From the sequence record OQ223306: DNA of 50,597 nt, one strand, 5' to 3'. This DNA comes from Shigella phage S2_02. The translations under genes were made by a program, and so were the position numbers. The notes under the pieces were generated by a model. That model saw nothing but the letters and a program-made list of their open reading frames with translations, ran no database searches and was not told where the DNA came from. Shown here piece by piece: positions 2,181-50,597 of the stretch (the stretch's first letter is position 1; every line of letters begins with the position of its first letter).

Positions 2181-2218
2181 TACCCCATCGAGACGAGATA
2201 CCAATCAGAGGATTCACC

Positions 2219-2449
2219 ATGTCAATCGTAAAAAACCAGCAAGCCATCGATTCAACCAATAACAACCGCTTTGCTATTTTCATCACTCGCGACAACAAGC
2301 GTTTTGCGGTCAAGGTAGTACCGGGTGGATACAATACATACATGGAAGATAACGGAAAATGGGTTCGGTGTGACAACCTCTCAAACTTCCTGGTCTGGAA
2401 TGCAGAACTCCAGGGATTTGATGATATCAGCACTTTAATTGAGGAGTAA
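2219..2449 (+). CDS. hypothetical protein (76 aa)
   Basis: ORF track; SD CAGAGGA in conserved CCAATCAGAGGA context. Confidence 0.55.
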   Translation: MSIVKNQQAIDSTNNNRFAIFITRDNKRFAVKVVPGGYNTYMEDNGKWVRCDNLSNFLVWNAELQGFDDISTLIEE

Positions 2450-5500: not shown

Positions 5501-6034
5501 ATGGATAAAATCACAATTTGGGGCCAGACAATCAACCTGTTTCTCGGCACTCGCCGCGTGGCAATCTTTGACTTCGACGGAACACTGAGTGACGGCTCAA
5601 AACGTCTTCACCTGCTACCGACGAAAGATTTGCACTTAACGGAAAGCTGGTCTGAGTTCAACCGCGCGGCAATATTTGACAATCCTATACGTAGTACGAT
5701 TGATGTGATGAACTCCATGTTTGCAGCTGGGTATCATGTGATCATTTTAACCGGGCGAAGCGATGAGGTGCGTTACGCATCTGAGTTATGGCTTAAGCAT
5801 CACGGCGCGCGATATGATTACTTAATCATGAGGCCGCATACCGACAACCGCAAAGACACGGTAATGAAAGAAGAGGCAGTGCGCGCTATCGGCATTGAGA
5901 ACATCCTGGCGGCTTGGGAAGACTCACCGCAAATTATTCCATTATTCCGGTCGCTTGGGATAACCACTTACGCTGTAGTTGACTATGGCGATAAAGTCCA
6001 CGATCATTTAAAATCTCACGGGGTAGAGAAATGA
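5501..6034 (+). CDS. HAD-superfamily phosphatase-like protein (177 aa)
   Basis: ORF track; N-terminal IFDFDGTLSD (DxDGT) motif and downstream ILTGR motif typical of HAD phosphatases. Confidence 0.65.
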   Translation: MDKITIWGQTINLFLGTRRVAIFDFDGTLSDGSKRLHLLPTKDLHLTESWSEFNRAAIFDNPIRSTIDVMNSMFAAGYHVIILTGRSDEVRYASELWLKHHGARYDYLIMRPHTDNRKDTVMKEEAVRAIGIENILAAWEDSPQIIPLFRSLGITTYAVVDYGDKVHDHLKSHGVEK

Positions 6035-6141
6035 ACCTATACGAATTTATTGCAGAACATCCGGTATTGACGGTTATCATCCTGCTAATCATCAATCACA
6101 CTATCATCAATGTAGCAAAATTATTTTTAGGGAGATACTGA
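6031..6141 (+). CDS. small hydrophobic peptide (36 aa)
   Basis: ATGA overlap with phosphatase stop; translation MNLYEFIAEHPVLTVIILLIINHTIINVAKLFLGRY; ends 1 nt before kinase ATG. Confidence 0.3.
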   Translation: MNLYEFIAEHPVLTVIILLIINHTIINVAKLFLGRY

Positions 6142-8535: not shown

Positions 8536-8561
8536 TGGTAAAATAACACTAAATGTTAAAC
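8536..8561 (+). promoter_or_regulatory. Putative late promoter (extended -10 TGgTAAAAT) overlapped by box copy AATAACACTAAATGTTAAAC
   Basis: TGGTAAAAT 8536-8544; box 8542-8561 spans predicted start and abuts TerS SD. Confidence 0.4.
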
Positions 8562-8576
8562 AAAGAGGATGGATTT

Positions 8577-9101
8577 ATGAGTGAACCTAAGAACGTTCCC
8601 GTTGTTCAGGGGGGTAATTTCAAAGAGCTATACAAGAAAAAGTTCGGCACTGTTCTTGCGAAGAACCGGGCAATGACACCAGAGCAACTATTCGATCTGT
8701 CAGTGAAGTATTTCGAATGGGCCGAGGACAACGCAATCAAGGCGTCAGAATCAGCCAGCTTTCAGGGTGGCGTTTATGAATCGCTTGTCCATAAGCCGCG
8801 CGTCTTCACCTGGACCGGATACCGACTATTTATCGGTGCAAGCGAGGCTGCAATCATTAAGTGGAAGCGAGAGGAAGAGTACAGTGAGGTTATGGAGTTT
8901 GTGGAATCGGTAATCAACGAGCAAAAATTCCAGCTTGCCGCCAACGGTGTTATTAATGCCTCCTTTATCGGTAAGGATCTCGGAATCGATAAGCCAACCT
9001 CAATAAATATCGAAAACTCGTCAGCCTCCGCATCGACAGTAGTCGCCACTACTGAGGATGCAATGAAGGACGCGGTAGACAAGGTTATTGGATTGCTGTA
9101 G
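8577..9101 (+). CDS. terS: terminase small subunit (174 aa)
   Basis: ORF-track frame 8553..9101; ATG 8577 has SD AGAGGA; position immediately upstream of TerL in packaging module. Confidence 0.55.
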   Translation: MSEPKNVPVVQGGNFKELYKKKFGTVLAKNRAMTPEQLFDLSVKYFEWAEDNAIKASESASFQGGVYESLVHKPRVFTWTGYRLFIGASEAAIIKWKREEEYSEVMEFVESVINEQKFQLAANGVINASFIGKDLGIDKPTSINIENSSASASTVVATTEDAMKDAVDKVIGLL

Positions 9102-9129
9102 TATCTTACCCACGGATGGGTAACATTTT

Positions 9130-9705
9130 ATGGGTTTGACTATGAACACAGGATTAGCAAGAGAAGTAAGTTCAGATGATGAGGCGTGGTTGTTGGAGCA
9201 CGTATATTACGACGAATCATCACCTACATCGTTGAGATTTAAGAACATGTTTCATAGGAATAAGGAAAACTCCGCCGCATTCAGGGAGGTTACTAAAGAC
9301 GGTTATTTTAGAGGTCAGCGCGGTAGTAGGGGTAGGAGGTTTTTTGCTCATCGCGTGGTGTGGTTCCTTCATTATGGGGTATGGCCTGAAAAAATAGATC
9401 ACATTGATGGTGACAGACAAAACAATGCAGTAAAAAACCTGCAAGAAACTGACGCGATGAGGAATCAGCAGAATAGAGATTGCAATGATATTGCTGGTGG
9501 ATATTTTGAGAAAAGGGTTGGTCGATGGCATTGCAGGATTAAGAGGAAAGGCAAGGTAACATTCATTGGTTATTTTGACACTCCGGAAGAATGTAGAGCA
9601 GCATACGCGAAAGCGAAATTAGAAATTCATGAAAACTTGTGTGAAAGGTCATTTAATGAAGGGGAGTTGAAAAATGTTGCAATGGGAAGAGTTAAACAAT
9701 CTTGA
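9130..9705 (+). CDS. HNH endonuclease with AP2-like domain (191 aa)
   Basis: ORF track; HNH motif region HRVVWFLHYG...IDHIDGDRQNN; paralog of 38762..39241 and 49475..50002; overlaps TerL start by 32 nt. Confidence 0.75.
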   Translation: MGLTMNTGLAREVSSDDEAWLLEHVYYDESSPTSLRFKNMFHRNKENSAAFREVTKDGYFRGQRGSRGRRFFAHRVVWFLHYGVWPEKIDHIDGDRQNNAVKNLQETDAMRNQQNRDCNDIAGGYFEKRVGRWHCRIKRKGKVTFIGYFDTPEECRAAYAKAKLEIHENLCERSFNEGELKNVAMGRVKQS

Positions 9706-11242
9706 GAAGCTGGCTATAAAGAAAATATCTGAGGCAAGCTTCTCTGGAATGATTAGGGCATGGTTCCAGATTATGCAGGCGCAAAAATACTCAATGAACT
9801 GGCATCACATTTACTTGTGTCATGAGGCTGAAGAGATTGTTGCGGGTCGTCGCGGTAACACCATCTTTAACGTAACGCCAGGATCATCAAAAACTGAGAT
9901 ATTCTCAATCCACCTCCCGGTGTACGCAATGCTTAAGTGTAAAAAGATTCGTAACCTTAACGTGTCGTTTGCCGACAGCCTGGTGAAGCGTAACAGTAAG
10001 CGAGTTCGTGAGATTATCAGCAGCAACGAATTCCAGGAGCTATGGCCCTGCAAGTTCGGCACATCTAAAGACGAAGAGATTCAGGTTCTGAATAGTGACG
10101 GAAAGGTTTGGTTTGAGCTAATCTCCGCAGCGGCTGGCGGTCGTATTACAGGTTCTCGTGGTGGCTACATGATGCCGGGATTCTCAGGGATGGTAATGCT
10201 CGACGACATCGACAAGCCTGATGATATGTTCTCAAAGGTTAAGCGTGAGCGTACGCACATGCTATTGAAAAACACCATCCGTTCCCGTCGTATGCATAAC
10301 GAGACTCCTATTATTGCAATTCAGCAACGACTACATGCTCAGGATTCAACATGGTTCATGATGAATGGCGGGATGGGTATTGAGTTTGACCAAATATCAA
10401 TACCGGCACTGGTGACGGAAGAATACGGAAAGACACTTCCTGATTGGTTGCAGCCTTACTTTGAGCGTGATGTTTTATCGTCTGAGTATGTAGAATTGGA
10501 TGGCGTTAAGCATTACTCTTTTTGGCCCAGCAAGGAAAGCGTTCACGACCTGTTAGCGTTACGAGAAGCAGATCAGTATACCTTTGATTCTCAGTATCAG
10601 CAGAAACCGATCGCGCTGGGTGGCTCCGTGTTTAACTCAGAGTGGTGGACTTATTACGGCAGCAGCCTTGACGCTGATGAGCCAGATCCGGGTAAATATG
10701 ATTACAGATTCATCACTGCCGATACCGCTCAGAAGACAGGTGAGCTAAACGACTACACAGTCTTTTGCTTGTGGGGTAAGAAGAACGATAAGGTTTACTT
10801 TATTGACGGCATTCGCGGTAAGTGGGAAGCGCCGGATATGGAGAAACAATTTACCGCTTTCGTTAATCAGGCATGGAGACACAATAAATCAATGGGCGTG
10901 CTTCGAAAAATCTACGTGGAAGATAAAGCGAGCGGTACGGGCCTTATCCAGAACCTCAGGAAAAAGACTCCGATCTCTATCACTCCGTTGCAGCGTAACA
11001 AAGACAAAGTTACCCGCGCTATGGATGCTCAGCCAGTTATTAAAGCCGGGCGTGTGGTTCTGCCAGAAGAGCACCCTATGCTTGCTGAAATTATCACTGA
11101 ACACAGCGCCTTCACTTACGATGACACCCATCCGCATGATGATATCGTCGATAACTTCATGGATGCGGCGAACATCGAATTGCTGACCATTGATGATCCT
11201 ATCGAGAGAATGAAGCGGCTCGCCGGGATGGTTAAGCGGTAA
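9674..11242 (+). CDS. terL: terminase large subunit (522 aa)
   Basis: ORF track; ATPase Walker-A-like PGSSKT and Walker-B-like VMLDDID; size and position typical of TerL. Confidence 0.9.
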   Translation: MLQWEELNNLEKLAIKKISEASFSGMIRAWFQIMQAQKYSMNWHHIYLCHEAEEIVAGRRGNTIFNVTPGSSKTEIFSIHLPVYAMLKCKKIRNLNVSFADSLVKRNSKRVREIISSNEFQELWPCKFGTSKDEEIQVLNSDGKVWFELISAAAGGRITGSRGGYMMPGFSGMVMLDDIDKPDDMFSKVKRERTHMLLKNTIRSRRMHNETPIIAIQQRLHAQDSTWFMMNGGMGIEFDQISIPALVTEEYGKTLPDWLQPYFERDVLSSEYVELDGVKHYSFWPSKESVHDLLALREADQYTFDSQYQQKPIALGGSVFNSEWWTYYGSSLDADEPDPGKYDYRFITADTAQKTGELNDYTVFCLWGKKNDKVYFIDGIRGKWEAPDMEKQFTAFVNQAWRHNKSMGVLRKIYVEDKASGTGLIQNLRKKTPISITPLQRNKDKVTRAMDAQPVIKAGRVVLPEEHPMLAEIITEHSAFTYDDTHPHDDIVDNFMDAANIELLTIDDPIERMKRLAGMVKR

Positions 11243-20258: not shown

Positions 20259-23225
20259 ATGGTTGATAAGGTAGCAGGTCTATCTCTTGACGTTGACGTG
20301 TCAACAGTTCAGCGCGCGGTCAAGTCACTGAAAGAGTTTTCAAGGGCCAACGACCAGGCCGCTGATTCTATGGGTTCTTTAATCAATGAGGCCGAGGTTG
20401 CAAAACAGAAGGCTAAAGAACACGCAGAGCAACTCAAGCGACAGAGAAAAGAGTACGAAGCGGTAGAGAAAGCAATCGATCCTACAGTTGCAAAAATGGA
20501 GAGGTTAAAAGTTACTTCCCAGCAGCTTGATAAACTCTGGCAGCAAGGCGTTATTCCAGATGACACGTTTTTCCGTTTAGGTGAAATGCTTGAGACGCAG
20601 AATAACGCGCTCATCAAGTCACGCTCTATGTTGACAGTGGAGGGGCGTGCTGCGGCGGAGAATGCCAAGCAGAAAGCCAGGGCCAAAGTTGATGCTGATA
20701 ACTTCATTCGAAGCCTTGAGCGTCAAGCTCAAGCGGCTACGATGACGAAGCAAGAAATGCTTGAGCTTAGGGCGGCTGAGTTGGGCGTATCGGACAAAGC
20801 GTCTCCTTTGATTTCTAAGTTAAATCAGCAAACGGAAGCATTCAAACTCAGCGGAATCTCAGCGGGTCAATACCGAAACGCAATGAAGATGCTACCTGCG
20901 CAGATTACTGATGTTGTAACATCAATGGCGACTGGGATGCCGATATGGATGGTTGCCATCCAGCAGGGCGGACAGATCAGCGATTCATTCGGCGGAATTG
21001 GTAACGCGATGCAGTTAGCGAAGGATGGCGTGATTGATTATATATCATCTATTACAGAGCTTAAATCAGCATTCGCAGATGTAAGAACCTTGGGTCAAGA
21101 TGCGATTGCCAGATTCGGACGTGCGGCAACGATTTTCGGCGGCGGCATTTTCACAGCGGTTGCTGCTATTGGTTATGCGGCTTACTCCTCATACTCTGAG
21201 CTGAGTGAGCTTCAAAGAGCTATCGTTCTGAGCGGTGGATATGCGGTTCAATCAGCGGCTGAAATGGATACATTGACCGATTCGATCACCAAAAACAGCA
21301 AGGGAAGCGGAGGAGCGGTTAAGGATATCGCTGCATCCATGGCTAAGTCTGGCAAGTACACATCCGATCAAATCAAAATCATCACCGCATCCACTGCGGA
21401 TTGGGCGACAGTAACAGGAACAAGCGCAGATAAGATCATTGCGGAGTTCGATAAGATTGCAAAAGATCCGGTTAGCGGACTGGCGGAGTTAAACAAGACA
21501 TATAACTTCCTAGAGAAAGGCCAGTTAACATACATCAACAATCTTAAGAAAACGGAAGGTCAAACTGCGGCGGTTACTGCTGCGACGAAAATTTTCGCCG
21601 ATGTAATGGATGATCGAATTGAAAAGCTTGCGGAATCAGCAAACCCACTAGAGAAAATGTGGTGGAATATCAAGAAATGGTCTAGCGACGCGTGGGATTC
21701 CGTTTCCGACAGGACGCTAGGGGCGCTAAATCTGATCACCGATGTAGTTGCTGGCACGCTTGAGCAGGTCAAGGTTATCCTCAACTATGGCGATCAGTAC
21801 ATTGGGGAGTTCGTCATTTCAGCTACAAAGGCGATGCAAGGGATTCCTGGTATGGGAACTTTCGGTCAATCGGTGATCGACGAGCAGCAGAAAATTGTTG
21901 ACGCAGCCAAAAAACAAAACGATGAGTTGTCAAAATCCATCGCAGAGCGAGACGCTAGGATCAGAAAGGGGGAAATGGGCTACTCGGAAGCGAGCAAGAA
22001 TGAGAAGGTAGGAGACGGTTATTCGTCAAAAACAAAAGACGCTGTAGACAAAGAGGCCGAGGCTCTAAAAAAAGTAAACAAGGAAAAGAAATATTCAGTA
22101 GATCAGGGGAATAAAATCACCGATCAGTACGAAATGGATATTGTCGCCTTGCAGTCTCAGCTAAAAGTACTGCAGGAGCATAAGACCATCAACGACAGCA
22201 TCAGCCATCAGCGCAAAACGCAATGGAACGAGCAAGCGCGGATACTGATTCTGGAGGGTATCGCGGCGGATCAGAAAAGTAGAGCGCTGACGCAGGAAGA
22301 GAAATCAATCCTTTTAAACAAGGCCAAGATTCTAGACCTTGCGGAACAGAAAGCGGTGTTGGGGGATCAGATTGTTAAGCAGCAGCAGTTGAACGATCTT
22401 ACCGATAAATCACTGAAATTTGTTAATGATTTTACGGCAGCTACAGAGCGGCTAAACGCGTCTCGCGGGATGAGCACCCGAGAAATGGAACGGCAAGCTG
22501 AGTTGGCTAAGATCACCACTGATTATATTAATGCAGGTGGCAGCGAAGGAGACGAGAAACTTCAGAACATGATTAAGGCGCAAAATGATTACTACGCTGC
22601 GGAAGATGCCAAGCGAGCTGACTGGTTGGCAGGTGCTGAAAGTGCTTTTGCTGATTACGGTGATGCAGCAATGGATATGTACGGCAATGTTAACGAGATC
22701 GCGTCAAGTGCCCTTAACGGAATGTCAGATATGATGGTTCAATTTCTAACCACAGGAAAAGCGAACTTTGAGGACTTTGCGAAAAATATCATCGGCATGA
22801 TTATAAAGATGATTGCTCAGATGGTAATCTTCAATACGATCTCAGGCATGATGGGCGGTAAGACGTGGAGCTTTGCTGGAGGGGCGTCGTCTGGTGCTTC
22901 TGCGGCATCACAGGCAACCCCTACGCCTGCTGCTTCTGTTTTTAGATCTGTATCTTCCGGCGGGGCCGCTGTATCACTTGCTGCCGCAGCGGGTAGCGTG
23001 GCAACCTCTGGATTCAACGCATCAAACTCGGCGCCAAAGGTGGTAAACCATTCAGGAGGTGGAACAGTCGTTGATGTAAGTGGCATGGAGGTGAGAGTTG
23101 ACAACGGTTCAGATCCGAGGGGGATTTCTCAGGGTGTAGAAATGATGTTCAAAAAAATGATTCGTGAGTCTTGTTCGCAGGGCGGCGAGGTTTATAATTA
23201 CATTCAGGAAAAAACAGGAGGTTAA
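20259..23225 (+). CDS. tail tape measure protein (988 aa)
   Basis: ORF-track frame 20229..23225; ATG 20259; long Ala/Gln/Lys-rich protein with C-terminal Gly/Ala/Ser-rich hydrophobic region, downstream of G/GT. Confidence 0.85.
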
Positions 23226-33317: not shown

Positions 33318-35102
33318 TCATTTGGACTTCAACATTTTTATCTCTTCTTGTAACTCTTCAACTTTCTTTATTGTATCCTGCAAAGCTCTCATAGTGTCAA
33401 GCAATAAAGGAGTTGTATCAAGCTCAAGCCTTTCAACTTTTGGCCCGTTTAGCTCGTGGCTCTCATACATCCTTCTCTTAACATATAGATTGTCGATCTC
33501 TTCTATCTCCTGAGCTATAACACCTCGCCTTACCCTTTCTTGCTCATCATCGTTAAATATAAAGTTCCTAAATCTCATTGATTTTATATTGTTGTATGCA
33601 ATGCTTGATTCATCATCCTTTATGCTGTGCTTTATATTTCTGTCAGATGCCGGAACTTGTTGGAAACTTCCAGTCTCTTGTGGTCCAGCGTAAGATATTT
33701 GCCCTGAAGCCATAAACCTGAAATGCATTTGCAGACCAATATTGCCTGCTCCATCCCTATCTTGAGTGCCTACTGATATTTGTGCTCTGGGCCATTCAGC
33801 ATTACCCGTAGTCATCATGCCAAATGCTACGCCGCCAACATACCCTTGCCCCCTTGTATCACACGATCCAGCAACAAGTGATTGATAGTTTTCAGCGCCA
33901 CTATCGGCGGTGTAAGAATTACCCTGGAAGCATGAAGCAGACCACATCTGGTTGTAACCCATAGATGTTTTCTGGCATAAAAACTGATTGGCTCTAAATC
34001 TATTGTTAGTCTCGAAGTAGTTTGCCCCTTCAGAAAATAATAAAGTCCCAGCATAACCATTATCGCTACGTTCTTTTCTGACGTAAATACCTGGCGTAGA
34101 CATTCCATCAGGTGACATAATCATCAATGATGACAATATGGACTTACTACCCCAGCTAGAACCGTCCCATGAATTCCTTCCTGCACCTATAGCGCCAGTG
34201 GTGTTAATAGTAAGAAAGTTAACAGCATCATTTTCACCTAACCCAATATTTTTTCTTGACTCTTTTTTATCCTCAAGACCAGCTAGATTGCCATCCTTAG
34301 TTAAAAGATTTTCAGCATTGATGCTGTTAGCTGCGTCTTTTGCTTCTTGAGCACTTACCGCAGCCGCATCTTTTGAGCTTACCGCATCGTCACGCGCTGC
34401 CTGAGCGTCGTTTTTTGCAGAGGTCGCTGTTTGTGCCGCTGTTTGAGCGTCATTAACGTAACCTGACAGATCGCCTTTTGCGTCATTAATTGCCTGAATC
34501 GCCGCCGCTTCTTCTGAGTCAATGTGAGTGATGGATGAATTTTCTTTTTGCTGCACATCGGTTATAGCCTGATCCTTCGCCGCATTGATGCTACCGACAG
34601 CACCGTCAACAATCTGTTGCGTCTGATTCTTGATTGAGTTAGTTTCATCGCGTGCAGCGTTGGCTGCGTCACGCGCTAATTCAGCCTGATTTTGCGCAGC
34701 TTGAGAATCAGATTTCGCCTGATTCACATCAGCAACTATTTGCTCAAGTTTATTCATATCAAGCTGATTTATCAGATCTATAGCTGCCGCGATCTCAGTC
34801 TCTTTGCTTTGATAGTATCGAAGCGTCTCAGCAACGTTTTGAGCTAATCCGTTAACAGTCAACGAATCGTTAAGCAGGATCACATACTTACCGTCAGCGG
34901 CAGTCTGACCATCCGTAGAGATAGCCTTTAACTCTGTGTCGCTAACGATATCGCTAATCACCGCCAGCTTAATTGGTTGCTCCAGGAATACGATAGTTGC
35001 ACCGACTCGAATCAGAGCAAGTTGATCTTTCCATTTTGTATCGGTTCCGTGAACCGTGCCGTCTGCATCCATTGATGCAGTGCCGCGTCTATATAAAGCC
35101 AT
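33318..35102 (-). CDS. tail fibre protein with C-terminal intramolecular-chaperone (peptidase S74-like) domain (594 aa)
   Basis: ORF track; Ala/Gln/Asp-rich repeats in N-terminal half; C-terminal segment ...SDRNIKHSIKDDESSIAYNNIKSMRFRNFIF... followed by coiled-coil tail, as in auto-cleaving fibre chaperone domains. Confidence 0.7.
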   Translation of the reverse strand: MALYRRGTASMDADGTVHGTDTKWKDQLALIRVGATIVFLEQPIKLAVISDIVSDTELKAISTDGQTAADGKYVILLNDSLTVNGLAQNVAETLRYYQSKETEIAAAIDLINQLDMNKLEQIVADVNQAKSDSQAAQNQAELARDAANAARDETNSIKNQTQQIVDGAVGSINAAKDQAITDVQQKENSSITHIDSEEAAAIQAINDAKGDLSGYVNDAQTAAQTATSAKNDAQAARDDAVSSKDAAAVSAQEAKDAANSINAENLLTKDGNLAGLEDKKESRKNIGLGENDAVNFLTINTTGAIGAGRNSWDGSSWGSKSILSSLMIMSPDGMSTPGIYVRKERSDNGYAGTLLFSEGANYFETNNRFRANQFLCQKTSMGYNQMWSASCFQGNSYTADSGAENYQSLVAGSCDTRGQGYVGGVAFGMMTTGNAEWPRAQISVGTQDRDGAGNIGLQMHFRFMASGQISYAGPQETGSFQQVPASDRNIKHSIKDDESSIAYNNIKSMRFRNFIFNDDEQERVRRGVIAQEIEEIDNLYVKRRMYESHELNGPKVERLELDTTPLLLDTMRALQDTIKKVEELQEEIKMLKSK

Positions 35103-36746: not shown

Positions 36747-38765
36747 GTGACAATTAACATCAAAAAGCAAATCGCATTACTTGGCGAGGACTATATAAAA
36801 CGCACTCAAGAACGATTCACTGTCGGTGAGGTCGTTCCTTATCCGTATCAGGTTGTTGCTTATGCCGAGATCGCAAAACGCCTTTCAAATTACGAGCATC
36901 CATTCTTTGTTAAAGCGTCAGTATCTGCTGGTAAAACAATCATATTCGCTATGGTGGCAAAGCAGTGTCAAAAAATGGGATTGAAAATGCTTGTGCTTGC
37001 GAGGCAGGGTGAGATTGTCGATCAGGATAGTGAGGAGATCGATAACTTCGGGGTAACGAACTCCATCTTCTCAGCGTCGCTTGGAATCAAGTCCTGCTAC
37101 TTCCCGATCGTGGTTGGCTCTGAGGGTACTGTTGCAAATGGCCTAAACAATGAGTTGGCTGATTTTGTCCCGCATGTAATTGGGATCGACGAATGTCACC
37201 AGGTGGATTGGGAAGACCTTGCTCAAGCCATTGAAGGAAAGGAAACGATGGAGCAGATGAAGGGGGAGAAAGGGAAAGTTATTATGGACGGGGAGATTCC
37301 TCTGATTGGTAATGATGGGAAACCTTTACTTGGAACTAAGCGAAGCCAGTACACTATCGTAATCATGGAGATGATGCGTCGCTGTAAAGAGATTCACGGG
37401 CATGACCTCAGAATATTTGGCATGACAGGATCTGAATTTAGGGGCGTTGTTCCGATTCTGGTGGAGAATACAAAGGCGTTAGGATTCTGGCGTGAGCGCG
37501 TAACTGATATCGATACAAACTATCTGATTGAGTTCGGCTCTGTTGTGCCGACGATATTCGGTTCAACTGACGGAGTACACTACGATCTGGATAAGTTCAA
37601 GGCGTCAAGCGAGGACGGCGTACAGGACTTTACAGAGAAAGATATGAAGGCTATGGAAGATGAGATCCTTCATGATAAATCCCTGACTCAGCGAATCATG
37701 CAAATGGTCGCCAAAAAGGCAGAAGAACGCAATGCGGTCCTGATTACATGTGCCGGGGTGCGTCACTGTAAAGAGGCGGCGGCGGCACTTCCACCTGGAA
37801 GTACCTATGCAATTATCACTGGCGAAACAGACACCAAAACGCGCAAGAAGATTCTTGATGATGTGAGGGCCGGGAAAATTAAATACACCTTTCAGGTAAT
37901 GGCGCTCACTACTGGCGTTAACGTTCCAAATTGGGATTTCAGTGTCATACTCCGCAAGATAGGGTCGCTCACACTGTTGATTCAACTTTTGGGTAGGGGT
38001 ATGCGTCTGCTTAAACCCTGGCAGGTTGCTGAGGGAATGGTTAAGCAGGACCATCTGGTATGGGATTTCGCAGGTACGATGGATGAATTGGGTCAGCTTT
38101 ATTTCGATCCGATACTTGAGCAGGCACAATTCCAAAAGCGTTTTGAAAACGGCAAAGATCCGAAAACATGTCCGAAATGCGGTTGCGTAAATAGCTTCTA
38201 TGCTCGACGATGCGTTAACGTTATCGACGGCGAGCGCTGCGATCACTTCTGGACTTCTCAGATTTGCGAGGACCAGGTTGATGAACGTACCGGGAAAATT
38301 CTTGTTAAAGGGTGTGGTGCTGAGAATGACGTTGTGGCACGAGTCTGTCGTTGCTGTGATGTTTCTCTCGTCGATCCGAACCTGAAGTTGTCCGGTAAGG
38401 CGTACACTAAGAATGACTGGTACGAGGTCAAGAATTTTGAGGTTACGCTAACCAAAAACCAAAAGGGCGTGATATACAAATATACGCTGATTAATGATGA
38501 CGGCGATGAGTTCAAGGCGTATGAAAAATTCTTCCCTGAGTCCGACTCTAAGATTTGCGGTACGCTATGGAAAACGAAAGGTGTATTACCTCATGTGTCA
38601 GATCCTAAAATGCGTCGCTACTTTATTGGAATGAAGAACGCTATCAAGATCGTGCAATACTCGCATCATATAGCGCATCCGGTGCGCGTAACTCATCGCC
38701 GCAACCAGAAGAAAGAAGATATTATCTCACGCAAAGACTTCGGTATGGAGGATATCCCGGAATGA
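36747..38765 (+). CDS. superfamily-2 DNA helicase (DEAH-type) with C-terminal zinc-finger region (672 aa)
   Basis: ORF track (GTG start); Walker A SAGKT and motif II DECH; C-terminal Cys clusters. Confidence 0.8.
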   Translation: MTINIKKQIALLGEDYIKRTQERFTVGEVVPYPYQVVAYAEIAKRLSNYEHPFFVKASVSAGKTIIFAMVAKQCQKMGLKMLVLARQGEIVDQDSEEIDNFGVTNSIFSASLGIKSCYFPIVVGSEGTVANGLNNELADFVPHVIGIDECHQVDWEDLAQAIEGKETMEQMKGEKGKVIMDGEIPLIGNDGKPLLGTKRSQYTIVIMEMMRRCKEIHGHDLRIFGMTGSEFRGVVPILVENTKALGFWRERVTDIDTNYLIEFGSVVPTIFGSTDGVHYDLDKFKASSEDGVQDFTEKDMKAMEDEILHDKSLTQRIMQMVAKKAEERNAVLITCAGVRHCKEAAAALPPGSTYAIITGETDTKTRKKILDDVRAGKIKYTFQVMALTTGVNVPNWDFSVILRKIGSLTLLIQLLGRGMRLLKPWQVAEGMVKQDHLVWDFAGTMDELGQLYFDPILEQAQFQKRFENGKDPKTCPKCGCVNSFYARRCVNVIDGERCDHFWTSQICEDQVDERTGKILVKGCGAENDVVARVCRCCDVSLVDPNLKLSGKAYTKNDWYEVKNFEVTLTKNQKGVIYKYTLINDDGDEFKAYEKFFPESDSKICGTLWKTKGVLPHVSDPKMRRYFIGMKNAIKIVQYSHHIAHPVRVTHRRNQKKEDIISRKDFGMEDIPE

Positions 38766-39241
38766 TTGAATGGTCAAAATACCTTAAGTACAACTACGGT
38801 AATCTTTACTGGCTCGTCACTAGAAATAATAGAGTTCAAGCTGGAACGCTTGCTGGAACTATAAGTGATGAGGGTTACGTGAAAGTCATGATGCGCAAGA
38901 AGGCGTATCATGCTCATAGAATAATATGGGAGATGCACTACGGAAAAATACCCGAAGGGATGGAAGTAGACCATATAAATCACGACAGGACTGACAACAG
39001 AATAGAAAACCTTCGTCTTGTCACTAAGCAAGTTAACATGAAAAATAAATCATCATATTCAAATAACAAATCTGGCGTTACTGGAGTAAGCTGGCACTCA
39101 AAGAAAAAGAAATGGGTAGCTCAGATACAAAGCAACAAGAGGAAAAAGATGTTATATGAAGGGGATAGCTTTGATGATGCAGTGAAGGCGAGAAAGTCAG
39201 CAGAGATAGAGCTTGATTTTCATAAAAATCACGGGGTGTAA
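38762..39241 (+). CDS. HNH endonuclease with AP2-like domain (159 aa)
   Basis: ORF track; HRIIWEMHYGKIPEGMEVDHINHDRTDNRIENL HNH core; paralog of 9130 and 49475 genes. Confidence 0.8.
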   Translation: MIEWSKYLKYNYGNLYWLVTRNNRVQAGTLAGTISDEGYVKVMMRKKAYHAHRIIWEMHYGKIPEGMEVDHINHDRTDNRIENLRLVTKQVNMKNKSSYSNNKSGVTGVSWHSKKKKWVAQIQSNKRKKMLYEGDSFDDAVKARKSAEIELDFHKNHGV

Positions 39242-39242
39242 A

Positions 39243-39662
39243 ATGGCTGTACTAGATAAGGGTGATTATTTAGAATATTATGAACGAGATCCCAGCGATA
39301 CTCGAAAGGAGGTTGCTCATCAGATTGATAGCTTCCAGTGGCTAAAGCACAATCATCCGGAATTGCTTGCTTGGCATAGCGTTAATGAAAATAAGAAGAC
39401 AAAAGTTACCGCGATGATTGACCAGCAGTCAGGATTACTTAAGGGCGTATCAGACTTCGTTATCCTGATTGGTGTAAACTCACGTTACCCGTTCGCAGCT
39501 ATCGAACTCAAACGGGTTAATAAGTCCGGCAAAGGAAAAGCGTCACCAGTCAGCGATAAGCAAATTGAGTTTCTCAAAAAGGTTCGTGAACGCGGTGGAT
39601 TCTCTGCCGTTGCATACGGATTTGAGCAATTCAAGCTGGCAATATGCGATTTAACTAAATAG
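39243..39662 (+). CDS. putative VRR-NUC / PD-(D/E)XK nuclease (139 aa)
   Basis: ORF-track frame 39213..39662; ATG 39243 follows upstream stop; GVSDFVIL ... AIELKRVN resembles D...E.K nuclease motif. Confidence 0.5.
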   Translation: MAVLDKGDYLEYYERDPSDTRKEVAHQIDSFQWLKHNHPELLAWHSVNENKKTKVTAMIDQQSGLLKGVSDFVILIGVNSRYPFAAIELKRVNKSGKGKASPVSDKQIEFLKKVRERGGFSAVAYGFEQFKLAICDLTK

Positions 39663-41527: not shown

Positions 41528-42679
41528 ATGTCACAAGCTAAAATCACCACCGAGCAACTTATTGAAGAGCGCATGAGCGGCCTAACACTTCGCGAAATCG
41601 CGGAAAAATACGGTATGCACATTCGCACTGTTGAAGCGCGACATGCCAAGCTGGCAAAAGAAGGTCATTTTCACGGTAACGAGCATGTTGCTAAAAACGT
41701 GCCCGAGGGATTCATGGTAAAAGGCACGTCGACGATGATTCGCGGCGATGGGACCGAGGTAGTGCGCTGGGTAAAAACCGATCAGGACCGTGAGAAGATT
41801 GCGGCAATGATGGAAGCAGCGCGTATTGCATTCTGTGAAGACCTGCCGAGAGCGAAGCCAACCGAGCTACTAACCTCGCAAGGGCTTACGACAGCGATGG
41901 GTAAGCTGGCACTCTATCCGGTATTCGATCTTCATATTGGCGCGCTTGCTCACAAGCATGAATGCGGAGAGAACTACTCTACCGACGTAGCTGAAAAAGT
42001 GCTTGGCGACTTCTTCAATTACGCGATCGATATTGCCCCGAACGCAGAGAAAGCTGTTCTGTTAATCGGCGGTGACTTCCTTCACTCGGACGGTCTTGAT
42101 GCTGTTACCCCGGCAAGCGGTCACGTTCTGGATCAGGATTCACGATATGCAAAATTGGTGCATGTGGCTATTCGATCGGTGCGTCGCGCTATCGACAAAA
42201 TGCTACTGAAGCACAAAGAAGTCGAAGTCCAGGTTATCGAAGGGAACCACGACCAGGCCGGGATGATTTGGCTACGCGCTGCAATGGCTGCATACTATGA
42301 AGACGAGCCGCGAGTATTCGTTGACGTCAGTCCTATGATTCTGCATAAGACTCGCTGGGGAAATACCTTACTGGGATACACTCACGGTCACACGATGAAA
42401 AAGGCAGACACGCGACTTGCAGCGATGGCGGCAGACTTCCGCGCAGACTTTGGAGAAAGCAAATACGTGTATACTCACAGTGGGCACTGGCATCATCAGA
42501 CAATCACTGAACACTCACTCGGTATTGATGAAGTTCACGGTCAGCTTGGGGCGAAAGACGCATATGCGGCGCGCGGCGGGTGGCGCTCATATCGCCAGGC
42601 GGCGGTAATCATTTACGATAAGCAGTTTGGTGAAATCGGTCGATTCATCTATCGTCCAGAAATGACAGGATCGCACTAA
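41528..42679 (+). CDS. calcineurin-like metallophosphoesterase with N-terminal HTH-like domain (383 aa)
   Basis: ORF track; motifs DLHIG, GGDFLHSDG, GNHD, GHTM, HSGHWHH; N-terminal LTLREIAEKYGMHIRTV HTH-like segment. Confidence 0.65.
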   Translation: MSQAKITTEQLIEERMSGLTLREIAEKYGMHIRTVEARHAKLAKEGHFHGNEHVAKNVPEGFMVKGTSTMIRGDGTEVVRWVKTDQDREKIAAMMEAARIAFCEDLPRAKPTELLTSQGLTTAMGKLALYPVFDLHIGALAHKHECGENYSTDVAEKVLGDFFNYAIDIAPNAEKAVLLIGGDFLHSDGLDAVTPASGHVLDQDSRYAKLVHVAIRSVRRAIDKMLLKHKEVEVQVIEGNHDQAGMIWLRAAMAAYYEDEPRVFVDVSPMILHKTRWGNTLLGYTHGHTMKKADTRLAAMAADFRADFGESKYVYTHSGHWHHQTITEHSLGIDEVHGQLGAKDAYAARGGWRSYRQAAVIIYDKQFGEIGRFIYRPEMTGSH

Positions 42680-42713
42680 TTACTAAAAATACCCGAAGGG
42701 ATTCGGGTATAGT
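42669..42713 (+). promoter_or_regulatory. Early-type promoter module: degenerate box + 18 bp + TATAGT
   Basis: Box GATCGCACTAATTACTAAAAA contains upstream stop; TATAGT 42708-42713 after hairpin ACCCGAA/TTCGGGT. Confidence 0.45.
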
Positions 42714-46273: not shown

Positions 46274-46318
46274 ATGATACACCGCCAATGGTACACGCGT
46301 TTTGCAAAAAGTGCTATT
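46274..46318 (-). promoter_or_regulatory. Leftward early promoter module (box + 18 bp + TATCAT on minus strand)
   Basis: Box (revcomp AATAGCACTTTTTGCAAAACG) 46298-46318; minus-strand -10 at 46274-46279. Confidence 0.45.
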
Positions 46319-46320
46319 GG

Positions 46321-46737
46321 TTATAAGTATTTGGCCTCAAAGGTTGTGCCGTCTGCAATGATGAATCCGACATCCGCACGAAATAAGGTCCAGCGGCAAC
46401 CGTCCTCATCAAAGATGTAACCAGCCACAGCACCGAGAGCGCGACCGCTTTCTACCTGGTAACGCTTTCCAACCTTGAATGATTTTTTCATCGGGTTGCG
46501 ATGGTCAAGTCCGGTGCACTTGAGCGTCTTTGTTTTCAACTCAGTGAACTTCGCGAAGAAGATTTCATCAGATCCGTGAATATGTAATTCATCATGCTTT
46601 TCAAGTTTTAAATACTTCCCGCATTTTAACTTGATTTCACGAGTGCCATCATATCGCTCACGACCTTTGTATAGGTTGTTTACTTCAAATCCTGTGATTT
46701 TATCTGCGTGAGTACATTTCAGTTTGATGGATTTCAT
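46321..46737 (-). CDS. hypothetical protein (138 aa)
   Basis: ORF track; SD AATCAGGAG. Confidence 0.55.
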   Translation of the reverse strand: MKSIKLKCTHADKITGFEVNNLYKGRERYDGTREIKLKCGKYLKLEKHDELHIHGSDEIFFAKFTELKTKTLKCTGLDHRNPMKKSFKVGKRYQVESGRALGAVAGYIFDEDGCRWTLFRADVGFIIADGTTFEAKYL

Positions 46738-47475: not shown

Positions 47476-47858
47476 TTTTTACCGTCCCATGTTTGATATG
47501 CCGTAACCAGGTTAATGCTATGGTCGAACTCGTCAACGCTAAGCGATCCAATTCGAACAATCTCCTTGTTGTGCTTAATGTCAATCATCCGGCTGCATGG
47601 ATGACCTGGAACGTATTTAAATAGACGCTTGCTGTCGGCAATGTCTGCGTTAATTCCGTAGAATCGGCCTACTGCCGCCTTAACGCGCTCCATGATGTTT
47701 TTTTCGTGGATTGCTGCCGCGTTATTTAGTGCCGCAACCGTGCTTCCGTTAATCTTCGGTGACTTCGTTGTGATTTTGTAAGTGTGGTTCATTATTCCCC
47801 CTAACCAGTCAGGATAGCTTCCGCGCTTCATCAATGATAACAGGTTCGAGACGCTCAA
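47472..47858 (-). CDS. hypothetical protein (128 aa)
   Basis: ORF track. Confidence 0.55.
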   Translation of the reverse strand: MSVSNLLSLMKRGSYPDWLGGIMNHTYKITTKSPKINGSTVAALNNAAAIHEKNIMERVKAAVGRFYGINADIADSKRLFKYVPGHPCSRMIDIKHNKEIVRIGSLSVDEFDHSINLVTAYQTWDGKK

Positions 47859-48009
47859 GTCGAACGCGGAACGTGTTCATAAATCCCTCGTTATTCTTCA
47901 ATAACTCGAAGGCGTCCGTAGCTTCAATGGCGCTACTACCCATGTAAGCGATTACTTTTTTCTTAGTCTTGCGTGAGATCGCCACCACGCGGTAAATATT
48001 ATCACTCAT
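47809..48009 (-). CDS. hypothetical protein (66 aa)
   Basis: ORF-track frame 47809..48027; ATG 48009 preferred (SD AAGGAGG 7 nt upstream). Confidence 0.5.
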   Translation of the reverse strand: MSDNIYRVVAISRKTKKKVIAYMGSSAIEATDAFELLKNNEGFMNTFRVRLERLEPVIIDEARKLS

Positions 48010-48202
48010 ACAATGCCTCCTTAACACGATCCGCTACACATGAGTTAACGGTGATTGAATAGTTTGTCACGCCCCATAATGCAATATTGCCAAGCTCGGT
48101 ACGCATAGATGGATTGTTTAGCTGGATGATTGTCTCGCCAGTATCGTCATCGAAGAAACGAGACGCGCCAGAACGGTCCACCACGCGCGTTACGCGGTTC
48201 AC
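48002..48202 (-). CDS. hypothetical protein (66 aa)
   Basis: ORF track (GTG start); weak SD. Confidence 0.4.
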   Translation of the reverse strand: MNRVTRVVDRSGASRFFDDDTGETIIQLNNPSMRTELGNIALWGVTNYSITVNSCVADRVKEALYE

Positions 48203-48205
48203 GCA

Positions 48206-48373
48206 CTACATTACATCACTTACGCCGTAATAAGCGCTCAGAGCGGATCTCAAGGCCTTCTCTTGCTTGTTGTAAATATTGCGCGCGATGTTCTCGATCG
48301 CCACGCTTTCTTTCTCGTCAGTCTGGATTGCAGTGCTGGCTGAGAAGTCCAGATCTGTGAACTGATTAAACAT
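48206..48373 (-). CDS. hypothetical protein (55 aa)
   Basis: ORF-track frame 48206..48418; ATG 48373 (SD GAGGAAAG) is the first start downstream of predicted start of module 48405-48449. Confidence 0.45.
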   Translation of the reverse strand: MFNQFTDLDFSASTAIQTDEKESVAIENIARNIYNKQEKALRSALSAYYGVSDVM

Positions 48374-48404
48374 GATTCTTTCCTCGTTCTCTGTTGGTGG
48401 GATG

Positions 48405-48449
48405 ACTATACCAGCCATCCCGGATGCGCGTTTAGCAAAAAGTGCTATT
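48405..48449 (-). promoter_or_regulatory. Leftward early promoter module (box + 18 bp + TATAGT)
   Basis: Box 48429-48449; minus-strand TATAGT at 48405-48410; CATCC start-like motif. Confidence 0.5.
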
Positions 48450-48609
48450 CGATAACTTCCTTTGGAACGACCTTGATCTCATCAAAGAAGTTAGTCCTGT
48501 CATTCTCAGTGAGATTCTTGATCTCGTTAGCTTTGCTCTCGGTCGAGCATATCTCGATCAGTTCGTCACCTTCATAGTAGATGGTTCCAACCACGCAATA
48601 TACGATCAT
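48445..48609 (-). CDS. hypothetical small protein (54 aa)
   Basis: ATGA overlap with stop of 48606..48986; stop TAG inside box 48429-48449; below ORF-track cutoff. Confidence 0.35.
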   Translation of the reverse strand: MIVYCVVGTIYYEGDELIEICSTESKANEIKNLTENDRTNFFDEIKVVPKEVIE

Positions 48610-48986
48610 AATTTTTCCTCCAGCACTTCACGGATGCGGTTGATTGCATCCAACTTGTCGCAATCCCAACGAGTCGTTCCGTTATCCGGTCGCCCTTCAA
48701 ACGCGAGACTCACCTCTTCGAGAAGGTTGTCAATGATAGCCTCCTTCTCGTCGCCGTCCATCTTTCCGAACTCAACCGATCCGACGTAGCGATTGATATA
48801 AGCAATCATGCTTTTATGCTCTTCAATGGTAAAGATATCCGTGATACTGATCCCGGTATCGCGTTGAGTGATAATTACTCGATTGCTCGGGCGAATGATG
48901 CCGCCCACCAGGCGATTGCAAATCTCAACGGTAAAACCTTTCTCATTTGCGCGGTCAATTGCTGCCTGAAGTTTTGAATCTGTCAT
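48606..48986 (-). CDS. hypothetical protein (126 aa)
   Basis: ORF track; SD AATCAGGAGAA. Confidence 0.55.
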   Translation of the reverse strand: MTDSKLQAAIDRANEKGFTVEICNRLVGGIIRPSNRVIITQRDTGISITDIFTIEEHKSMIAYINRYVGSVEFGKMDGDEKEAIIDNLLEEVSLAFEGRPDNGTTRWDCDKLDAINRIREVLEEKL

Positions 48987-49016
48987 CTGGTGATTCTCCT
49001 GATTGGTTTATGTGTT

Positions 49017-49062
49017 CAATATACCCCGATTACCTTCGGGGCGTTTAGCAATTCGTGCTGTT
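49017..49062 (-). promoter_or_regulatory. Leftward box copy with hairpin; -10 weak
   Basis: Box (revcomp AACAGCACGAATTGCTAAACG) 49042-49062 with hairpin CCCCGA/TCGGGG; no good -10 at the expected spacing. Confidence 0.35.
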
Positions 49063-49396
49063 AATCAATATCGAACTCAGCGGCATACGCTTTCTTGAAG
49101 CCAGCTTCACGCATGGTACGCTTACTGATTTTTCGCGGGAACTTGTACTGGCTGTTAGGCTTAACCCACCAGAAGCAGGCAGTTTCGCGAACGATTTCAT
49201 ATTTACCATAGCGGGTGAAGGTGTCACGTTCAGCGTCCGGCTGGTTAACACAGGTCAGGAATTTAGCAGCTTTGTCTTCAGTTTTGATTTCTTCCCATAC
49301 GAAGGAATCCATACCGTTAACTTTGCAAGCTACCATGATGTACTCAACGCCGTTTTCGATTTTGATGATTTCGTTACCGCGATTTTCGTATTTCAT
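49061..49396 (-). CDS. hypothetical protein (111 aa)
   Basis: ORF track. Confidence 0.55.
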   Translation of the reverse strand: MKYENRGNEIIKIENGVEYIMVACKVNGMDSFVWEEIKTEDKAAKFLTCVNQPDAERDTFTRYGKYEIVRETACFWWVKPNSQYKFPRKISKRTMREAGFKKAYAAEFDID

Positions 49397-49434
49397 TTTC
49401 CTGCCCCTGATGTGTATCTCGTTTCGATGAAGTA

Positions 49435-49479
49435 ATTATGCCAAATCACACCGATCGAGTTTTAACAAAAAGTGCTATT
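49435..49479 (-). promoter_or_regulatory. Leftward early promoter module (box + 18 bp + CATAAT)
   Basis: Box 49459-49479 contains stop of HNH gene; minus-strand -10 at 49435-49440. Confidence 0.45.
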
Positions 49480-50002
49480 TGCCGTGGTTTTCATGGTATC
49501 CGTGTTCATATTCAGCGGCTTTCTTTGCGGAAATCGCATCATCAAAACTTGAGAAGCACCCTATGTAAATTCTCCTTCCTCGCTTTCCCCCTCCAATCCT
49601 TACAACCCATTTGCCATGTTTATTTTTATGCACACCTGGTATGCCACTTGTATTGTTTTTCTGTTTTGATGTGTTTCGCATATTTCCTTTGTGATCTTTT
49701 AGCTCAAAGTTTATTGCTCTGTTATCAGTCGTAATGTGATTTACGTGATCAACCTCCTTTCCTTCAGGTATAGTCCCATAGTGCATTTCATAGCATATTC
49801 TATGAACTTTTAGGTTATAACGTTTTCCGTTTATAGTAAGTGCGGTTTCTAAATATCTGCCACCACTACCCAAAGAGCCAACCTCATTACCAGCATTGCA
49901 AGCATTCCATTGTTTAACTCTTGATTTGTGGATATCTTTTCTTTCTTTCCAGAACAGCTTTCCAGTTTTCGGATTGTATGTAAAGTAATCATGCCAATTC
50001 AT
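49475..50002 (-). CDS. HNH endonuclease with AP2-like domain (175 aa)
   Basis: ORF track; HRICYEMHYGTIPEGKEVDHVNHITTDNR HNH core; paralog of 9130 and 38762 genes. Confidence 0.8.
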   Translation of the reverse strand: MNWHDYFTYNPKTGKLFWKERKDIHKSRVKQWNACNAGNEVGSLGSGGRYLETALTINGKRYNLKVHRICYEMHYGTIPEGKEVDHVNHITTDNRAINFELKDHKGNMRNTSKQKNNTSGIPGVHKNKHGKWVVRIGGGKRGRRIYIGCFSSFDDAISAKKAAEYEHGYHENHGK

Positions 50003-50114
50003 TCATCACCTCAAAACGGAAGATATCGCGCAAAGTTAAGTTCATGACCAGCAAGGCCGGAACCGTCAAATAGTGACCAGATTAATTTCACTTGTTGCAT
50101 TCTCCTGATTAACC

Positions 50115-50249
50115 TTATCGCTTACCCTGACCGTTGCAGGCCGGACACGTAATTCTCTGCATCATCCAGACTCCAGAGACTTCAGTGAATAACGGAACCA
50201 TAGTAAATCCACGACCAGCACACTGACTACAAATCTGTTTAACTCTCAT
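50115..50249 (-). CDS. small zinc-ribbon-like protein (44 aa)
   Basis: ATG with SD AGAGGAAG; two CxxC pairs (CSQC ... CPAC); below ORF-track cutoff. Confidence 0.4.
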   Translation of the reverse strand: MRVKQICSQCAGRGFTMVPLFTEVSGVWMMQRITCPACNGQGKR

Positions 50250-50283
50250 TTTTGCTTCCTCTTCTGATTGGTTGATGTGATGA

Positions 50284-50329
50284 ATCATACCCTGCCAACA
50301 TAGCTAAGTCGTTAGCAAAAAATGCTATT
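50284..50329 (-). promoter_or_regulatory. Leftward early promoter module (box + 19 bp + TATGAT), first of leftward early region
   Basis: Box (revcomp AATAGCATTTTTTGCTAACGA) 50309-50329; minus-strand -10 at 50284-50289; CATCA start-like motif. Confidence 0.45.
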
Positions 50330-50470
50330 CCAATAATTGCTCATTATTCCATCAATAGTGGAATATGTGGAATAATTTTGATTGTGATTGATTGCGAATG
50401 ATGAAACGTGATTATTGCATGGTGCGCAACAGTTGGTTGATTTGTTGCTGAGAATGCAATGATTGTGAGA
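50330..50470. repeat. Repeat-rich non-coding control region (TGGAAT/ATTCCA and GATTG repeats) ending in G8
   Basis: Short direct and inverted repeats read directly; continues across the assembly junction into 1-445. Confidence 0.5.
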
Positions 50471-50597
50471 GGGGGGGGAATTGGTGTTACCCAGTTCACC
50501 TGGTAGTCATCTCCATTTTTAGCAAAAAGTGCTATCCATTACGATTACGCTTGATTGTGTGTTAATCCATGTATATGATTTGCCTAAATCGCAATCG
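50471..50597. repeat. Terminal direct repeat copy 2 (identical to 1-127)
   Basis: Exact match to window start; repeat may continue beyond window end. Confidence 0.9.

Follow-up and report, generated by a model that had tools for sequence, protein, structure and literature searches.

Three genes of Shigella phage S2_02 (OQ223306), here called HNH-1, HNH-2 and HNH-3 (Table 1), are best read, with a probability of about 0.85, as independently acquired, free-standing homing endonucleases of an HNH_3 + AP2 family. Each of them is putatively specialised for one site, namely terS/terL, helicase/VRR-NUC and the 5' end of dcm, respectively.

The window, i.e. the whole stretch of 50,597 nucleotides that was analysed, was identified by megablast of the terminase region and whole-genome blastn against T1 (NC_005833) as a complete T1-like genome (Tunavirus, Drexlerviridae), which the blastn comparison showed to be collinear with T1 at ~90–95% nucleotide identity over most blocks. 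Nucleotides 50471–50597 duplicate nucleotides 1–127 exactly, and this 127-nt end duplication is an assembly overlap of k-mer size in a genome assembled as a circle, for which the unit length is 50,470 bp.

Three intergenic genes of one protein family

An earlier note on this DNA had placed three HNH-AP2 genes at 9130, 38762 and 49475. ORFs are present at each of these positions and belong to one HNH_3 + AP2-like family; their neighbours are also as that note described, with HNH-1 between terS and terL and overlapping terL by exactly 32 nt (9674–9705), HNH-2 after the helicase gene and HNH-3 in the leftward early region. All three are intergenic and either overlap complete neighbouring genes or are separated from them by gaps of 1–28 nt. 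No fourth family member was detected in S2_02 by blastp of all six-frame ORFs of at least 40 aa, and pairwise amino acid identity among the three proteins was 27–41%. A search of the S2_02 genome for group I introns and other structured RNAs matched no Rfam family; thus HNH-1, HNH-2 and HNH-3 are free-standing genes, unlike that of I-HmuI, and an intron-encoded origin of the I-HmuI type was rejected on the basis of this genome-wide result and the intergenic location of all three ORFs.

Table 1. Coordinates of the three HNH genes of S2_02, their neighbours and associated features.
Feature	Position	Strand	Description
HNH-1	9130–9705	+	191 aa; between terS and terL; putative free-standing endonuclease gene, HNH_3 + AP2 fold
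HNH-2	38762–39241	+	159 aa; putative HNH_3 + AP2-like endonuclease gene between helicase and VRR-NUC genes
HNH-3	49475–50002	-	175 aa; putative HNH_3 + AP2-like endonuclease gene, leftward early region
terS	8553–9101	+	GP3_package / phrog_606, P22 gp3-like pac type; upstream neighbour of HNH-1
terL	9674–11242	+	Follows HNH-1, of which it is the likely target
Helicase gene	36747–38765		Upstream neighbour of HNH-2
HNH-1 insertion relative to empty site	9082–9673	+	592 nt vs 59 nt in T1 (T1 8901–8959)
HNH-1-linked divergent tract	9674–9907	+	First 78 codons (~235 nt) of terL
HNH-2-linked divergent tract	39243–39436	+	5' ~65 codons (~195 nt) of VRR-NUC gene
HNH-3 cassette	49476 to ~50032–50038	-	~560 bp: HNH-3 and ~30 nt upstream
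dcm remnant	50011–50100	-	29 codons: dcm codons 1–21, 8 cassette-derived codons and stop
Empty site of T1 gp63	5970–6141
Empty site of T1 gp15	42664–42706
Empty site of T1 gp8	46318–46323

The Pfam HNH_3 profile was matched above its gathering score by all three proteins (HNH-1, E = 4e-12; HNH-2, E = 3e-25; HNH-3, E = 3e-13), with HNH-1 scoring lower and aligning only to profile positions 2–38 of 46, and PHROG 99 ('HNH endonuclease') was matched full-length over the same region in each (E = 3e-41, 2e-63 and 2e-51, respectively). Across 109 homologues, residues D90, H91, N103 and N115 were invariant, while N99 and N112 were conserved in at least 90%; all of these residues are found in HNH-1, HNH-2 and HNH-3, each of which has an HNH (beta-beta-alpha-metal) nuclease domain with intact catalytic His/Asp and Asn. 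AP2 was the top Pfam match of each C-terminal segment (E = 7.7e-4, 3.7e-6 and 1.5e-3), in every case below the 33.3-bit cut-off, and was matched at E ≤ 0.001 by 45 of the 109 aligned homologues, which bears out, at this sub-threshold level for AP2, the claim that the genes share an HNH core plus an AP2-like segment. In an AlphaFold model of HNH-1 built on the 109-sequence alignment (pLDDT 80.4), residues 124–166 form three strands and then a helix, and the C terminus is accordingly modelled as an AP2/ERF fold with a three-stranded sheet packed on the helix. An AP2-type DNA-binding domain is thus indicated by sub-threshold sequence matches in all three proteins and by a structure model for HNH-1. 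In phmmer searches against PDB sequences, I-HmuI was matched by HNH-1 and HNH-2, over an alignment that spans the DH...N motif, and the AP2 domain of WRI1 was matched by HNH-1.

The three genes had also been called paralogous. They do form one protein family, but each belongs to a clade of its own, is tied to a single site and has closer relatives in other phages; in a neighbour-joining tree, genes clustered by insertion site and not by genome. Relatives of HNH-1 at 55–79% amino acid identity, in mar001J1 (where the gene is already annotated as a homing endonuclease) and the metagenomic T1-like contigs L008, L009 and L011, are all flanked by a GP3_package terS and a Terminase_6C terL, while a 39% relative sits elsewhere, off this junction. 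Relatives of HNH-2 at 64–66% identity lie between helicase and VRR-NUC genes (contigs L014 and L016), and those of HNH-3 adjoin dcm. Insertion sites are therefore constant across diverged Drexlerviridae, and HNH-1, HNH-2 and HNH-3 look, from their sequences, like independent acquisitions rather than within-genome duplications. Within each of the three lineages dN/dS was 0.10–0.20, indicating that the proteins are under purifying selection and maintained. Among INPHARED phage records there was one other close carrier each for HNH-1 and HNH-2, a small carrier sample to which metagenome assemblies added P0001 and P0002 (HNH-1) and P0009 and P0010 (HNH-2).

Three members of this family are also present in phage T1, where gp63 follows pnk, gp15 follows the exonuclease gene and gp8 lies beside helicase gene gp9. 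Their products are 28–51% identical to the S2_02 proteins and of the same size; HNH-2 is closer to T1 gp8 (51%) than to HNH-1 or HNH-3. At the gp63, gp15 and gp8 sites S2_02 has 42–170 bp or nothing, and the sites of HNH-1, HNH-2 and HNH-3 are all empty in T1. The 25-aa C-terminal extension of T1 gp8 corresponds to 75 nt that S2_02 keeps as ordinary sequence, and this retention suggests that gp8 read into pre-existing DNA after its insertion. A ~1-kb stretch of S2_02 (41600–42650) that is 58–78% identical to T1 ends near the empty gp15 site (~42664–42706) and looks like another nuclease-associated exchange boundary, viewed from the empty-site side. Further HNH_3 genes occur in metagenomic T1-like contigs (L009 3870–4376, L008 1–23 and L014 6078–6483), where they lie directly after terL, at a site like that of T1 gp63 and downstream of dam, so the number of sites that the family uses in Drexlerviridae is far greater than six.

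Empty sites and divergent tracts at two junctions

When a 4-kb query around HNH-1 was used, 53 phage records covered at least 80% of it. Among the matches listed, Lg3 alone covered HNH-1 in one piece, while 39 other listed records (of the 53) gave a two-piece match with a span ~534 bp shorter, which corresponds to a terS/terL junction of T1 length. Homologues with at least 50% amino acid identity were found by tblastn only in Lg3 (98%) and in records of Warwickvirus mar001J1 (56%). T1 and relatives without HNH-1 have terS and terL genes that are 90–92% identical to those of S2_02. The ribosome-binding site of terL, AAGGGGAG, is contained in the last 32 nt of HNH-1, 8 nt before the terL ATG; terL expression is thus preserved by a ribosome-binding site that the 3' end of HNH-1 supplies.

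Divergence from T1 was asymmetric about the insertion. Identity of terS to T1 was 95–100% up to ~20 nt before the terS stop codon, whereas the start of terL was 57–77% identical to T1 in 40-nt windows (~70% over the whole tract, cf. 94% in the rest of terL), and identity returned to 90–100% in windows past the tract. In the phage-record search, Lg3 matched this terL tract at 100% identity, and none of 262 other records exceeded 72.2%. S2_02 and Lg3 were 98–100% identical across HNH-1 and the tract, relative to 91–97% in the backbone. The metagenomic Tunavirus-like contig L008, which encodes an HNH protein 79% identical to HNH-1, likewise has a terL tract that is not of T1 type (70% identical to T1 and 82% to S2_02), with the rest of its terL 93–94% identical to both. 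The proportion of synonymous differences (pS) was 0.81, i.e. saturated, in the tract and 0.23 in the rest of terL, which indicates that the tract came from a distant donor lineage and does not reflect a few escape mutations. We predict that it holds the recoded, cleavage-immune target region of HNH-1.

A perfect 7-bp hairpin (TTACCCA-CGGA-TGGGTAA, 9106–9123) lies between the terS stop codon and the HNH-1 start, and the terS–terL spacer of T1 has a different, GC-rich hairpin (GGGCGC-GAGA-GCGCCC); a hairpin at this junction may be a conserved regulatory feature. Terminator-like sequences were more numerous than expected (6 found, 1.3 expected), the hairpin beside HNH-1 being a weak one. A search for a promoter of HNH-1's own gave a promoter-like count at chance level (3 found, 2.5 expected), and neither count is taken as evidence of a promoter or terminator belonging to HNH-1.

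The location of HNH-1 could instead reflect its function, and the earlier note had raised a packaging-associated HNH protein as an alternative: an accessory nuclease like HK97 gp74 or the phi12/SaPI HNH protein that cuts concatemers together with terminase. HNH-1 does lie inside the terminase operon, shares 32 nt with terL, includes the terL ribosome-binding site in its coding sequence, and has relatives that, down to 55% identity, are always at the terS/terL junction; homing and packaging roles also need not exclude each other (PMC10448857). Against this, HNH-1 is absent from T1 and all 39 other listed relatives, which are isolated, propagated phages with terminase genes 90–92% identical to those of S2_02; HNH-1 is dispensable there. 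The terS of S2_02 is of the P22 gp3 (pac) type, whereas known HNH packaging factors serve cos phages, and T1 is a classical headful/pac packager. Proteins of the HK97 gp74 type, which like HNH-1 are encoded beside terminase genes, are conserved and required in cos phages, are small and of PF01844 type, and lie by the terminase genes and the cos site. HNH-1 differs in being dispensable in relatives, in lying between a pac-type terS and terL, and in its HNH_3 + AP2 make-up; neither conservation at the terminase side in relatives nor cos packaging with a single PF01844 domain was found. It matched HNH_3 and AP2 and gave no match to PF01844, and this I-HmuI-like subtype is the same as that of the two copies away from the terminase genes. 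Moreover, the saturated divergence of the HNH-1-linked terL tract is a prediction of homing. A packaging function for HNH-1 is therefore highly improbable.

Homing as the preferred reading is matched at the second junction. The start codon of HNH-2 overlaps the helicase stop codon (ATGA), and a single nucleotide separates the end of HNH-2 from the start codon of the VRR-NUC gene. The insertion lies exactly at this VRR-NUC start codon, and the helicase/gp21 junction measures 486 nt in S2_02 vs 2 nt in T1. At least 80% of a query covering the HNH-2 region was matched by 52 records; among the matches listed, LHE71 alone carries HNH-2 (already annotated there as 'HNH homing endonuclease') and 39 other listed records are ~485 bp shorter. 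The 5' tract of the VRR-NUC gene was 60–80% identical to T1, cf. ~90% beyond it, while the 3' end of the helicase gene was mostly 88–97% identical, an asymmetry as at HNH-1. LHE71 shared the tract at 96.9% identity, and every other listed full-length match was at or below 75.3%; S2_02 and LHE71 were 96–100% identical across HNH-2 and the tract and ~90% identical in the backbone. After LHE71, the best listed full-length matches of the tract were the Tempevirinae tunus, JK16 and JLBYU07 (75.3%) and not Tunavirus, a small difference that hints at the donor lineage.

The comparison with insertion-less relatives that had been proposed for these genes thus returned empty sites at the HNH-1 and HNH-2 junctions in 39 other listed records each. 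Since such relatives are common, a conserved presence at identical positions in all relatives, which would speak against homing, is not what we observed. Both tracts (~0.70 identity to T1) rank among the lowest 4% of aligned 200-nt windows across the genome, and in the phage-record search tract type was linked to gene presence for both genes. Carrier-specific variants of the likely target, such as co-conversion would leave, accordingly accompany HNH-1 and HNH-2; this comparison does not apply to HNH-3, as its target gene is deleted.

HNH-3 and the lost dcm gene

The HNH-3 cassette is 90.5% identical at the nucleotide level to JLBYU07 (Tempevirinae) and ~93% identical to Poky, BEK12A, PeterMerian, Salmonella phages and other Drexlerviridae. 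Its flanks were unalignable with JLBYU07 and the other carriers, in which the neighbouring gene is a cytosine methylase gene (dcm), and no record was found with the same arrangement as S2_02. In SA30RD, Shfl1 and others, the position of HNH-3 is occupied by dcm: S2_02 47807–49482 and 50039–50542 match SA30RD on either side of ~630 bp of this gene. On this alignment, the cassette has evidently replaced ~630 bp, i.e. most of dcm, at the position equivalent to SA30RD.

Both ends of dcm persist. Codons 1–21 are kept as MQQVKLIWSLFDGSGLAGHEL, including motif I (LFDGSG), and HNH-3, preceded by a GAGGTGA Shine-Dalgarno sequence, begins 8 nt past the stop codon of this remnant. Just 3' of the HNH-3 stop lie the last ~5 dcm codons (~49457–49475), and at this 3' joint ~7 nt are shared, with 49476–49482 aligning to JLBYU07 and SA30RD alike.

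According to its annotation, JLBYU07 would have an HNH-3 homologue that splits dcm. This was rejected, as the downstream ORF there has motif I (FDGSG) near its start and a reading of the sequence revealed no methylase motif in the 75-aa ORF that precedes it; the nuclease gene of JLBYU07 thus lies just upstream of a complete dcm, the start of which it overlaps. On these sequences the simplest reading is that the HNH-3 lineage targets the 5' region of dcm. In S2_02, HNH-3 would have arrived from a poorly homologous donor, with the event resolved illegitimately and the body of dcm deleted; because its target gene is destroyed, HNH-3 is possibly stranded now.

The dcm gene of SA30RD (L004 ~2213–2330, minus strand) has an in-frame TGA after ~codon 29, and the annotation starts past this TGA as a 182-aa 'DNA methylase'; the TGA could reflect a pseudogene, a sequencing error or recoding. 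HNH-3 itself is part of ~1.8 kb at the right end of S2_02 (48450–50271) that has no T1 counterpart and otherwise consists of ORFs 48606–48986 and 49061–49396 (both minus strand) and a 57-aa ORF with two CxxC pairs (50115–50288, minus strand). Parts of this block are also present in SA30RD, Shfl1 and others.

Homing, passive carriage and relation to known systems

By themselves, the distribution data fit either endonuclease-driven homing or ordinary recombination that carries the gene along. The three genes might then be relics or passive passengers that no longer home, or that have been domesticated (for competitor exclusion or against satellites), with their patchiness arising from ordinary modular recombination and deletion. 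Drexlerviridae genomes are indeed mosaic, and S2_02 has several tracts of low identity to T1 without HNH polymorphism (for example, 901–1300, 20450–20850 and 34500–34750); HNH-3, in a wrecked dcm with microhomology-type joints, is no clean homing product; and active homing is beyond proof by bioinformatics alone, a limitation stated in PMC10448857. However, the dN/dS values of 0.10–0.20 and the intact catalytic residues speak against decay, the insertion points coincide exactly with the start codon or ribosome-binding site of the downstream gene, and the gene and the divergent tract are strictly linked in their occurrence. In addition, carriers share near-identical islands on more diverged backbones, and the HNH-3 cassette is 90–94% identical across subfamilies with unalignable flanks. 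Together these observations indicate recent, gene-centred transfer, and the relic or passive-passenger reading is unlikely.

The earlier proposal of candidate homing endonucleases therefore holds up, with empty sites being the rule in close relatives and the units of gene and flank appearing as laterally moving islands. The divergent tracts are what intronless homing would be expected to leave, given co-conversion and a carrier allele immune to its own nuclease. On this reading, when carrier and gene-less relative infect the same cell, the enzyme would bind a specific sequence via its AP2-type domain and would nick or cut within the conserved 5' portion of the gene that immediately follows the insertion point. 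Repair by recombination with the carrier genome would then bring the endonuclease gene into the recipient along with a few hundred bases of the donor's flanking DNA, while the carrier would be protected because its own flanking tract is heavily recoded. We infer cleavage as such, the position of the cut and its form (nick or double-strand break) from these patterns.

A more specific proposal, which we put forward tentatively and hold at somewhat less than even odds, is that the mobile unit comprises the nuclease gene and, as its immunity determinant, a recoded stretch of ~200–235 nt from the 5' end of the essential gene downstream, the two being passed on as a single block across Drexlerviridae, and that the HNH-3 locus records a cross-subfamily homing attempt (from a Tempevirinae-type donor into a Tunavirus dcm) in which microhomology repair deleted the enzyme's own target gene. 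If true, this locus would be a case of homing-endonuclease-driven gene loss caught in a natural genome.

Homing endonucleases that combine HNH and AP2, first described by Magnani et al. 2004 (as cited in PMC10448857), form an established family known from phages, cyanobacteria and protists. HNH-AP2 endonucleases cluster near terminase genes and at recombination boundaries, and the S2_02 tracts agree with the published generalisation that nuclease genes lie at the boundaries of genetic exchange (both PMC10448857). HNH genes shift position among T1-like phages (PMC13164509), and homing-endonuclease 'infestation' with gene conversion was described in the BASEL collection (PMC8594841). One close parallel, the IPA-HNH HEGs (Barth et al. 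2023, PMC10448857), resembles the S2_02 genes in having an N-terminal HNH and a C-terminal AP2-type domain, and in being free-standing beside essential or conserved genes including terminase, patchily distributed and located at exchange boundaries. Whereas HMM-HMM searches were needed for the ICP1 IPA-HNH, the S2_02 genes match canonical Pfam HNH_3 directly; their hosts are T1-like siphoviruses, and their activity is putative, the genes being known from sequence. T1 gp63, gp15 and gp8 (NC_005833 annotation) are of the same family and size and occur in the same kind of phage, at three other sites.

I-HmuI (PDB 1U3E), the HNH nicking homing endonuclease of Bacillus phage SPO1, is similar to HNH-1 and HNH-2 in sequence and to HNH-1 in fold. 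It is encoded inside a group I intron, whereas the S2_02 genes are intergenic and free-standing and have an AP2 fold instead. The C-terminal DNA-binding region of I-HmuI we take to be a helix-turn-helix domain. By analogy, the S2_02 tracts match the intronless homing of the T4-type SegF, SegG and MobE, in which a free-standing gene lies beside a conserved target, flanking markers undergo co-conversion and sequence differences shield the carrier allele. Seg proteins are GIY-YIG enzymes and MobE is an HNH enzyme without AP2, both unlike the HNH_3 + AP2 proteins of S2_02.

The main relevance of these findings is to the annotation and comparative genomics of T1-like phages. The evidence supports the S2_02 HNH genes as additional members of a well-known type of phage passenger and not as packaging machinery, and we suggest that HNH-1, HNH-2 and HNH-3 be labelled HNH-AP2 homing endonucleases and not packaging factors. 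Since the 5' tracts of terL and the VRR-NUC gene are laterally imported, and terL is a standard marker, these tracts should be masked in phylogenies. The predicted targets are the 5'-most ~235 nt of T1-type terL and ~195 nt of T1 gp21, together with the 5' end of dcm, and T1-like phages growing on E. coli K-12 would be an easy experimental system for these predictions. The chief interest lies in the clean linkage of HNH-1 and HNH-2 to a recoded 5' tract in the neighbouring gene and in the replacement of dcm, which offers a natural example of such elements remodelling or deleting neighbouring genes.
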